Below are positions 6,001 to 8,793 of a DNA stretch of 8,793 nt, piece after piece. The DNA is from Alteromonas naphthalenivorans. GTDB taxonomy: Bacteria; Babelota; Babeliae; Babelales; CAIQNR01. How positions within the stretch are numbered: the stretch's first letter is position 1; every line of letters starts with the position of its first letter. Location: NCBI GenBank assembly GCA_047631715.1, contig JBLICC010000036.1, positions 1 through 8,793 on the forward strand, read 5' to 3'. The position numbers are program-made.

Positions 6001-8793
6001 TAGTGGCAATCTCAAGAATTTTATCTTTGACTGGATCTAGTCCCGTCATTTCAAGATCAATCCATATCAAATTATTATGATTCACAAAGTTCCTCTGCTA
6101 CAAATGACCCGCTAAATAGACAATTCTAATAATTATTTTGCTTCAATAGCGCAAAAATGTCGACTCCCCAAGAAAACTAATGGTGTATTACCTGCGGATC
6201 GAAACCTTGGGCCTGTTATTGCTTTAGGAAATGATACTCTTTCGTCAATTTTAGCCCTTGTCGCTAAAACTATTACTTTTTGCTGTATAGAAACTCCATT
6301 CAAAGCAAAGTTACGATTTGATAAAAAATTACTCTTGCGATTAAAGCTTTTAGGCGCTTTTGGCAAACCTGCTAAATCCAAGGCGCAAGAAATTGAAACA
6401 GAAGGAAAAGAATTGCTATCACTTAACACAGAGTCAGATGCAATAACTTGTCCTACTAGAATATTTATTGCCGCAAAAAAAAGTAGTTTTTTCATGTACA
6501 TTCCTAACTAATATATAAAACATAAATAATTCTTATAAGTATACCGCATTAAAAAAAATTAATAAATCTCTCTTTGTTCGATATACTGATTCACAAATAA
6601 CTTTTAGGAGCATACATGAGCAAGTTACGAGTTGGCGTTTTGATGGGTGGAATGTCTATAGAAAGAGAAGTTTCTTTTAATTCTGGAAGAACAATTTGTG
6701 ATCATCTTGACGCACACACCTATGATATTATTCCTATTTTTCAAACATTAAACAACAAGCTTTTTATTTTGCCTTGGCGATTTTTATATCGTGGAAAAAT
6801 AAGTGATTTTGAACATCGATTAGAAAAAGAAACCAAAAAAATAACTTGGGATGACTTAAAAAATATAATTGATTTTATGTATATTGCTGTGCACGGCAGA
6901 TACGCAGAAGATGGCACCCTACAAGGATTTTTAGAAATTCTTGGCATTTCCTACTTAGGCACTAAGGTTTTAGGAAGCGCCCTTGGTATGAACAAAACTC
7001 TACAGAAAAAAATCCTTACTCATAGCAATGTTGTAACCCCTAACAGCATAACGATAGAACCAGATCATATTAAAGAAAACACAAAGGACTTGATTGTTTA
7101 TTTACAGAAAAACAATCTTGATTTCCCTTTGATTATAAAGCCAAATCAAGAAGGTTCCAGTTTAGGAATATCTGTTGTTTTTAACGAACAAGAACTCTTG
7201 CCTGCACTTATTAAAGCACGTGATGTTCACACAGAAGAACAGCAATCCGTTTTAATAGAAGAAAAAATAGAAGGTATGGAGTTCTCTTGTATCACGCTTT
7301 TTGATAAAATAACCGGGGAACCAATATCGCTTCCTCCTACAGAAGTGGTCATAGAAAAAGGATCTCATATTCATGATTACGAACAAAAGTATATGCCAGG
7401 CCGTGCACAAAAGTTTACCCCTGCTCGCTGTTCAAACAAAGTTTTAAAAGACATCCAAACAATCTGTTTAAAAACAACTCAAGCCTTGCACTTTACAACA
7501 ATGTCTCGTATCGATGGATTCGTAAAAAAAGACGGCACTATTGTGATAATTGATCCTAATACTCTTTCTGGCATGGCACCATCAAGCTTCTTTTTTAATC
7601 AAGCCGCAGAAATAGGCATGAGTCACACAGACATTATTAATCATTTAATAGAAACAGAATTACATACTTCTGGATTACAAAAAACATCTGTTAAACAAAA
7701 GAACATTATGAATACTAAAAAATTACGCGTTGGCATTCTTTTAGGCGGAACAAGTAACGAAAAAGAAATATCGTTAGAGTCTGGAAGAAATATTTTTTAT
7801 AAGCTCTCTTCTCAATATTACCAAGCAACACCTCTATTTGTTGATAAAAAGATAGAGCTCTACCCTCTCACACAAAAACTCTTAGTTCATAACTCAACTA
7901 CAGAAATAGAGAACGATTTAGATAGATCTACAAAAATAACCTGGGGTTCTTTGCCCGAACAATTCGATTTTATTTTTATTGGTTTGCATGGTGGAGCAGG
8001 AGAAAATGGCTCTGTGCAAGGAACGCTAGAAATGCTCGGACTGCCCTATAACGGTTCTGGCGTTGCCGCAAGTGCTTTGTGTATGAACAAATTTGAAACA
8101 AATAAGTTTCTTGCTGCTCAAGGCTTTGATGTTCCCAGAAATGTATTAATCTCTAAAGAAGAGTGGGAGTGTAATAAAAAGAACATACTCAAAAGCGTAC
8201 AAATAGAGCTCGCCCTACCGCTTATTGCAAAACCACATGATGATGGCTGCAGCACAATGGTAGAAAAAATAAAAACGATTAAACAGATAGAGCTAACTAT
8301 CAATGAAATGTTTAAAAAAAATAAACCCTATGTGTTTCTAGAAGAGTTTATAGATGGCATGGAGCTAACAGTAGGCGTAATTGGCAACAATATACCACAA
8401 GCCCTACCTCCTAGTCAGACAATTGTATCTGGTGAAGTTTTAAGCATTCAAGAAAAATTTTTGCCGGGAGCTGGAGAAAATCAAACACCTGCGCCTTTAA
8501 AAAAAGAAGCTTTAGGACTAGTACAACAAACAGTAGTCCAGGGATATAAAGCTCTTGGCTGTTCTGGATATGCACGTATCGATTGCTTTTACCAAACAAC
8601 AAAAGAAAGCCCTACCAGCAAAGAACGTATTATCATTTTAGAGATTAATACCCTTCCTGGCATGACCCCCGCAACCTGCATTTTTCACCAAGCTGCCGAG
8701 ATTGGAATAAAGCCAATGGAATTTATCGATACAATTATAAGGCTAGGACTAGAGAAATATGGGAAAATATTGACCCCGCCAAAACAGATACTT

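Follow-up and report, generated by a model that had tools for sequence, protein, structure and literature searches.

[quoted passage not shown] A promoter scan returned three sites compared with 2.4 in shuffled sequences, i.e. no excess. The genome-wide survey's note had described the gene as cut by the contig end, and this was confirmed: the final 148 nt of the open reading frame overlap the end of a second contig, C53 (98.6% nucleotide and 100% amino acid sequence identity), in which the frame continues for nine codons before a stop. As these nine codons add to the 726 in the window, the full protein is 735 aa long. Gene order over the C36/C53 join is that of a genome of the same genus (G001), and an assembly artefact was rejected on the strength of 36 relatives and of 120 homologues of full length.

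Pfam disclosed two matches each to Dala_Dala_lig_N and Dala_Dala_lig_C, and these, together with structure matches, alignment and mapping onto E. coli DdlB, define two modules, all features described below being on the forward strand. Module 1, here designated type 1, spans 6616..7671 and has an intact triad, Glu16-Ser181-Tyr259, and an Asp-x-Asn metal site. Module 2, designated type 2, spans 7714..8763, and its ATP and metal residues are all canonical while the triad is changed to Glu-Cys-Phe. The linker between them (7672..7713, about 14–20 residues) is the lowest-confidence internal part of the AlphaFold2 model, and it is deleted in a relative (G036) in which the gene is split. The two modules share 32% amino acid sequence identity (E 7e-59). 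Module 1 alone matched 38 sequences of solved structures (best E 1.5e-41) and module 2 alone matched 37 (best E 5.5e-39), nearly all of them Ddl/Van ligases, which bears out the survey on two points, namely that a single chain holds two complete Ddl modules and that each half resembles solved Ddl/Van structures. The AlphaFold2 model of the 726 residues in the window, with pLDDT 94.1 and pTM 0.91, implies that the modules are fixed in relation to each other, and the matches listed by Foldseek were all single-chain Ddl/Van ligases (TM-score 0.79–0.93). Both the Ddl-family domains (Pfam, twice each) and the ATP-grasp Ddl fold (Foldseek) were therefore found. Neither half reaches the TIGR01205 cut-off of 245.65 bits (236.1 and 218.2), and the whole protein scores 449.4.

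Residues were mapped onto E. coli DdlB from the K-12 record, four sequences with an unmatched start motif being left out, and invariance was counted in the alignment of the best 120 homologues. Common to both modules are Glu15, His63, Lys97, Lys144, Lys215, Arg255, Asp257 and Asn272, which were near-exceptionless in both across lineages, together with Glu68, Glu180 and Glu187 (DdlB numbering). The roles of Ser150 and Tyr216 are taken from bioRxiv 2020.05.09.085589 and PMC5996685, and the other conserved residues are assigned the roles that they have in DdlB. In module 1, Ser150 and Tyr216 are kept, in Ser181-Ser182 (7156..7161, DdlB Ser150-Ser151; 120/120) and in Lys258-Tyr259 of the omega loop (7387..7392, DdlB Lys215-Tyr216; 120/120), and the changes lie in the segment from Asp313-Pro-Asn315 to Phe325 (7552..7590), where Glu270 is replaced by Asp, Pro275 by Ser and Leu282 by Phe, Ser281 being kept. 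In module 2, Glu270 and Pro275 are kept and positions 150, 210, 216, 281 and 282 read Cys, Leu, Phe, Thr and Cys. Here Cys545 (8248..8250) replaces Ser150 in 120/120 homologues, 115/115 plant-type and 71/71 Syntrophales-type sequences, Glu613-Lys614-Phe615 (8452..8460; 120/120) occupies the omega-loop positions Ala214-Lys215-Tyr216, and the segment from Glu676-x-Asn678 to Thr687-Cys688 (8641..8679) retains Glu270 and Asn272, with Ser281 changed to Thr and Leu282 to Cys. The motifs quoted by the survey for both modules were recovered at their positions, since E16, E18, K258, Y259, D313, P314 and N315 in module 1 and E382, E384, K614, F615, E676 and N678 in module 2 were each found in 120/120 homologues. 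The changes of Ser150 to Cys (C545, 120/120) and Ser281 to Thr in module 2, and of Pro275 to Ser and Leu282 to Phe in module 1, go beyond what it reported.

The Glu15-Ser150-Tyr216 triad is thus intact in module 1 and carries Cys and Phe replacements in module 2, and the Glu270-x-Asn272 metal site is intact in module 2, with Asp at 270 in module 1. Asp was found at this position in 0/21 canonical Ddls aligned. Glu270 presumably bridges both Mg ions, and we take the positions of Tyr210, Ser281 and Leu282 to line the acceptor pocket. The canonical Ddls (TIGR01205, PRK01372), such as E. coli DdlB and DdlA, share the fold, the ATP-grasp residues and the place in the pathway. They are homodimers of single-domain subunits, however, and the same site has both Glu-Ser-Tyr and Glu-x-Asn, whereas in the present protein the triad is in module 1 and Glu-x-Asn in module 2; the canonical residues that each module would have lost are different ones. 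Cys150 and Phe216 are nearly invariant in type 2 of all lineages, Cys150 being Ser in a few 50%-identity representatives. Among the best 120 homologues the invariant positions number 74/344 in module 2 and 64/346 in module 1, and by this measure module 2 is conserved as well as module 1.

Close relatives are labelled Babelota, Dependentiae or TM6. A match was present in 38 of 40 relatives, comprising 36 fused genes of the Babelota type, one fused gene of the plant/Patescibacteria type (G039) and one pair split into two genes (G036), and no match to the ligase was found in the other two (G030, G032). The tandem is not a feature of this phylum only, as the family also occurs in Cytophagales, Patescibacteria, plants and others. 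A profile search of 50%-identity representatives gave tandem proteins of ~700–950 aa with the same two signatures, some with extra fused domains. Genome scans gave at least 614 confirmed stretches in Bacteroidota including cultured Pontibacter, of which the best 80 were kept, and at least 824 in Patescibacteria and scattered Gammaproteobacteria, of which 64 loci were kept; a smaller tandem group (20 loci) includes Acidobacteriota, Planctomycetota, Spirochaetota and others. In the order of Pontibacter (Cytophagales, 61 genomes), 49 genomes had a tandem-type match without a canonical Ddl, 11 had a canonical Ddl without a tandem-type match and one had neither at E<=1e-30. In the other Bacteroidota sampled the tandem occurred in 0/110 genomes and a single Ddl in 110/110.

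A query with one tandem protein led to plant and algal DDL, including a Physcomitrium protein annotated as D-alanine-D-alanine ligase. According to the portions of PMC9954125 consulted, DDL in Arabidopsis and in moss consists of two putative DDL enzymes fused together, and such fusions occur throughout plants; the survey's statement that a tandem Ddl had not been described is thus incorrect. The present protein belongs, as an ordinary member, to a double-Ddl family that is widespread, and because this architecture has been published for plants, the fusion itself is not news. Both signatures were found in 115/115 plant/algal-type sequences that could be split, one further sequence of the set of 116 being left out owing to an unmatched start motif. 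Plant DDL (Physcomitrium PpDdl, Arabidopsis AtDDL) resembles the present protein in having two Ddl modules in one chain, in carrying the same type-1/type-2 residues at all tested positions (115/115) and in that its modules, with type 1 ahead of type 2, nest in the same pair of clades. It differs in length and subfamily (about 870–1060 aa and Patescibacteria-type, against 735 aa and Babelota) and in having Val at position 282 of module 2, where the present protein has Cys. Arabidopsis ddl insertion lines in which only the second half is kept look normal, and whether this half is an active ligase is left undecided in the same portions of PMC9954125. The bacterial comparison marks the second half as the atypical one, which makes the plant question testable. 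The parts of the plant DDL literature examined contain no mention of unequal active sites or of bacterial relatives. More generally, fixed unequal halves, a bacterial pair that is fused, split or reduced, and type 1 surviving alone were not found in the literature covered, which did not include Hirano 2016 and Sato and Takano 2017.

A quick tree search, with the active-site columns kept, was run on 82 modules with 21 canonical Ddls, mostly from Bacteroidota. Type 1 formed one clade (SH-aLRT 94) and type 2 another (97), with a joint clade (99) versus the canonical Ddls, and a FastTree analysis of 166 modules agreed. In the 82-module tree, which includes no cyanobacterial Ddl, the nearest sampled relatives of chloroplast DDL are Patescibacteria-type bacterial sequences. 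Syntrophales-type bacteria have a single-domain gene for each of the two types, which are about 45% identical. In 29/80 metagenome loci these genes are adjacent, with type 1 preceding type 2; in 51/80 loci type 1 was absent from flanks of up to 3 kb, many of them shorter. The unfused type was found in 2/96 genomes of the phylum of G215, both times as an adjacent two-gene pair, the types being judged from scores. As the unfused Syntrophales-type sequences are the first branches in both clades, the divergence appears older than the fusion, which suggests that duplication and divergence came first and fusion later. One ancient duplication gave rise to type 1 and type 2, now separate in some bacteria and fused in others, and likewise fused in plants. 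Secondary separation has also occurred: in G036 the halves are two overlapping genes with a ribosome-binding site ahead of the second, and in three Cytophagales genomes of ~1.1 Mb they are separated by 9 kb, separated by 665 kb or located on two contigs. These three reduced genomes keep module 2 although it is no longer linked.

The split halves of G036 allowed the complex to be predicted. Their score was 0.78, against 0.00 for the best control, the mark for a pass being reached by 51/78 solved complexes and 2/108 mismatches; contacts agreed at >=93% between runs and partner pLDDT was >=86. The predicted interface is symmetric, with equivalent helices from both chains. It fits a Ddl-like dimer, and the modules are predicted to pack as both subunits do in an ordinary homodimeric Ddl, although the pass may show mere likeness, as Ddl homodimers have already been solved. 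Such symmetry is what would be expected if the fusion were simply a tether of an ordinary homodimer and the differences between its halves neutral drift. This explanation is very improbable and is already largely refuted by conservation, as fused and unfused lineages alike, Syntrophales-type bacteria at one end and flowering plants at the other, have the type-specific residues fixed, and the unfused pairs branch first, so that the difference appears older than the fusion.

In the present genome (G000) the protein is the only Ddl, tblastn finding only itself and the C53 overlap, and MurF and three other Mur ligases are present. MurF was above the cut-off in 38/41 Babelota genomes, and the genomes without it are the two that have no ligase (G030, G032) and one that is 59% complete. 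In two related proteins the ligase is part of a larger fusion, Ddl-Ddl-MurF (P0225) and Ddl-Ddl-MurF-alanine racemase (P0266). Being the sole Ddl, tracking MurF and having relatives fused to MurF and alanine racemase, the ligase probably supplies D-Ala-D-Ala. An alanine racemase cluster adjoins it in 12/64 Patescibacteria-type loci (the 64 kept of >=824) and 22/80 Syntrophales-type loci, one representative of each cluster having been scanned, and the tandem gene of Cytophagales shares a PASTA-domain neighbour with 6/19 canonical Bacteroidota Ddls. As noted by the survey, a search of G000 (90% complete) gave no alanine racemase, and as a general trait this does not hold, since 22/41 Babelota genomes, including G001, have one; for the same reason loss of the racemase was rejected as the cause of the double enzyme. 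The co-occurrence of MurF and ligase also fits reports of Babela without murein genes and Chromulinavorax with them, in the parts consulted of PMC4378268, PMC4776705 and PMC6561590.

These data are best accounted for, with slightly better than even confidence, by an asymmetric dimer in one chain whose product is D-Ala-D-Ala for peptidoglycan synthesis. Following established Ddl chemistry, each module would bind ATP and Mg, form D-alanyl-phosphate and pass it to an acceptor, the physiologically needed product presumably being D-Ala-D-Ala. Module 2 would be a second, still selected ligase-like site, differing in kinetics, acceptor tolerance or regulation.

Natural dissections bear on the part played by each half. 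In 10/61 Cytophagales genomes a protein of 557–644 aa consists of module 1 and the decayed start of module 2 (the G156 member was read solely as a 644-aa open frame). A separate module 2 was absent in 10/10 of these genomes and no other Ddl-strength match was found in them, 5/5 being also negative in a PF07478 scan; MurF was present in 5/5 tested. The ten proteins group in one clade that lies within the full-length module 1 sequences (columns 268–286 removed; 3/19 full-length Cytophagales sequences left out, start motif unmatched), and therefore represent one event. All ten keep Asp270, together with Pro275, Leu282 and Phe212, whereas 18 full-length Cytophagales proteins have Ser/Ala275 and Phe282 in module 1. 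As Asp270 is kept in 10/10 genomes with module 1 as the only Ddl, it can apparently support catalysis; judged from these sequences, module 1 can be the catalytic site and Asp270 is not lethal to it. Being changed at several positions, these proteins are no proof that an unmodified module 1 works alone; module 1 alone could make D-Ala-D-Ala after a few compensating changes. Upon partner loss module 1 appears to revert toward the canonical sequence, hence the halves would depend on or complement each other when intact. The PF07478 scan also showed one weak 376-aa ATP-grasp frame in G211.

A second, independent decay of module 2 was seen in P0128, a single Babelota-type metagenome protein in which module 1 has Glu270; known from the metagenome protein alone, it may be a spare copy. 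Its return to Glu270 would suit an enzyme with one catalytic site and one degenerate site acting as a ligand-binding regulator, or one in which module 2 carries out a different reaction (wrongly made dipeptides being edited or reversed, or Cys545 bearing an acyl-thioester), as would the complementary losses in the two modules and the replacement in module 1 of the Glu that presumably bridges the metals by an Asp that 0/21 canonical Ddls have. We regard this as quite unlikely, since Asp270 is kept in the 10/10 genomes that have module 1 as their only Ddl and the eight shared residues from Glu15 to Asn272 named above are near-exceptionless in both modules; an obligatory thioester on Cys545 is further opposed by the Ser that replaces Cys150 in a few representatives.

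A different possibility, which we consider doubtful but worth stating, is that the enzyme has two products, D-Ala-D-Ala from module 1 and a different D-Ala-D-X important to the cell from module 2. This X being D-lactate is improbable, and no less improbable is another acceptor, e.g. D-Ser, Gly or a larger D-amino acid. The changes of Tyr210 to Leu, Ser281 to Thr and Leu282 to Cys/Val alter what we take to be acceptor-pocket residues, the conservation of module 2 equals that of module 1, and module 2 is kept as a separate gene in the three ~1.1 Mb genomes and in G036. In the parts of PMC5996685 consulted, Tyr or Phe at the Tyr216 position decides between dipeptide and depsipeptide in lactic acid bacteria, and module 2 has this Phe (F615, 120/120). 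The bioRxiv preprint 2020.05.09.085589 reports, in the section available, weak D-Ala-D-Lac activity of DdlB after Tyr216 to Phe and Ser150 to Ala changes; as both positions are changed in module 2, the analogy is stronger than the survey had stated. D-Ala dipeptides with other amino acids are reportedly also formed in plants, by enzymes unidentified in the excerpt of PMC7432710 consulted.

Comparison with ligases of known D-Ala-D-X products counts the other way. LmDdl2 (Phe261), of the lactic acid bacteria D-Ala-D-lactate ligases, shares the Phe with module 2 and is among its weaker structure matches (E 2.7e-19), but these ligases are single-domain and the tandem family has a Tyr-type partner wherever whole genomes can be checked. 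Both modules score far under the cut-offs, whether of the models for D-Lac and D-Ser ligases or of any Van model. VanA/VanG-type ligases belong to the same superfamily, and VanG has in the alignment an acidic residue preceding the omega-loop Lys, as module 2 does; unlike them, the present protein has no Arg at position 282, which we assume to have a role in Van-type ligases. The EKY motif, which we associate with D-Ser ligases, was dropped as a clue, no paper that names it being among those listed and Syntrophales-type 2 having Asp there. Neither a score above the model cut-offs of VanA/B/C/G nor a vanH, vanX, vanT cluster was found, and VanH- or VanX-like genes and van clusters do not figure among the neighbour clusters listed as most frequent at Babelota, Bacteroidota, Patescibacteria-type and Syntrophales-type loci. 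VanX-type dipeptidase occurs in 16/41 genomes, not including G000 or G001, and a van-like cluster was therefore rejected.

The survey had read the protein as a covalent pseudo-heterodimer supplied with D-lactate through the D-2-hydroxyacid dehydrogenase g00451. Its two distinct conserved active-site signatures (120/120) stand, and the supply by g00451 is not supported: a full-length dehydrogenase is present in 11/39 ligase carriers, together with the VanX-type enzyme in 5/39, its gene here is on a different contig from the ligase, and the neighbour clusters listed as most frequent do not include it. The D-lactate link is thus weak. In moss, the portions of PMC9434261 consulted describe a DAP-Ala-Ala pentapeptide and report only Ala-Ala, which also speaks against a second product.

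The asymmetric dimer making D-Ala-D-Ala is therefore preferred, and some facts count against it. The near-invariance of Cys150 and Phe216 goes beyond what a small adjustment of the kinetics would call for, and DdlB changed at these two positions reportedly gains weak D-Ala-D-Lac activity, in the section of the preprint cited above. Among tested genomes that belong to neither Babelota nor Cytophagales, 2/5 have both the tandem and a Ddl of canonical length, and in G044 there is a second Ddl-like frame, of 435 aa. On a tentative view, less probable than the asymmetric dimer, type 1 and type 2 would form a two-subunit Ddl system predating the fusion, with type 2 supplying the stem peptide with an additional kind of end (D-Ala-D-lactate or a different D-Ala-D-X). 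In that case one housekeeping enzyme would give rise to mixed peptidoglycan ends, or to a second D-dipeptide, in Babelota, most Cytophagales, many Patescibacteria, Syntrophales-type bacteria and plant chloroplasts; should module 2 make another product, a large set of bacteria would have unrecognised cell-wall chemistry. Cultured hosts such as Pontibacter are open for genetics.

Selection of glycine by module 1 through Phe282 was considered and rejected, as the canonical Ddls L244 and L245 also read Ser-Phe at 281–282 and Phe282 hence allows no such inference. Last, by arithmetic a depsipeptide is shifted by +0.984 Da and the 13C peak by +1.003 Da, and because the two masses nearly coincide, the moss mass spectra are compatible with a minor depsipeptide.

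The genes upstream of the tandem Ddl gene, at 798-6085 of the window, are ordinary housekeeping genes. Pfam assigns them to DNA polymerase I, to PriA and to an exonuclease of the RNase_T family, and the exonuclease cluster was found in 34 of 51 Babelota ligase loci. Two ORFs on the reverse strand, of 122 aa (6133-6501) and 192 aa (105-683), have a signal-peptide-like start, and a Pfam scan of both gave zero matches.

Just beyond the end of the ligase gene, on the overlapping contig C53 of the source genome, three neighbouring ORFs (C53:2343-3889) look secreted and were read from their sequence as carrying RING-finger-like Cys/His patterns; they are not present at the corresponding place in G001, a relative of the same genus. 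They are flanked by a DUF6629 gene on one side and, on the other, by a sodium:alanine symporter family gene (C53:1006-2322), the cluster of which occurs as a neighbour in 9/51 Babelota ligase loci. No alanine racemase was found in the source genome, and the symporter near the ligase could import alanine there.

Among the Babelota, one genome, G039, carries a tandem Ddl of the Patescibacteria/plant type (L054:4523-6961) in place of the Babelota type, and this suggests replacement via horizontal transfer. At L051:6001-8376, in one long-contig assembly, the ligase gene is broken into many frameshifted pieces, probably through sequencing error.

Other Ddl-like genes were encountered in the compared genomes. 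Adjacent Ddl-like frames of ~360 aa (E about 1e-40 to 1e-51) occur in pairs alongside a canonical Ddl in 13 Bacteroidota genomes (G053, G058, G068, G077, G081, G097, G101, G109, G117, G129, G133, G145 and G149), and in these genomes the paired frames had no match to the tandem Ddl family. A second Ddl-like protein of G028 (638 aa, L056:1985-3901) combines a weak Ddl-like C-terminal match with an unrelated N-terminal part, and its gene adjoins a VanX-type gene.

The tandem Ddl is also part of larger proteins. In P0225 (1262 aa) it is joined to MurF in a single chain, and in P0266 (1638 aa) to MurF and alanine racemase, so that P0266 holds the whole D-alanine branch within one protein. Three Bacteroidota tandem Ddls, P0143, P0145 and P0223, bear a long C-terminal extension, which includes a PASTA domain in P0143 and P0145; in P0223 the motifs of module 1 and module 2 alike are decayed.
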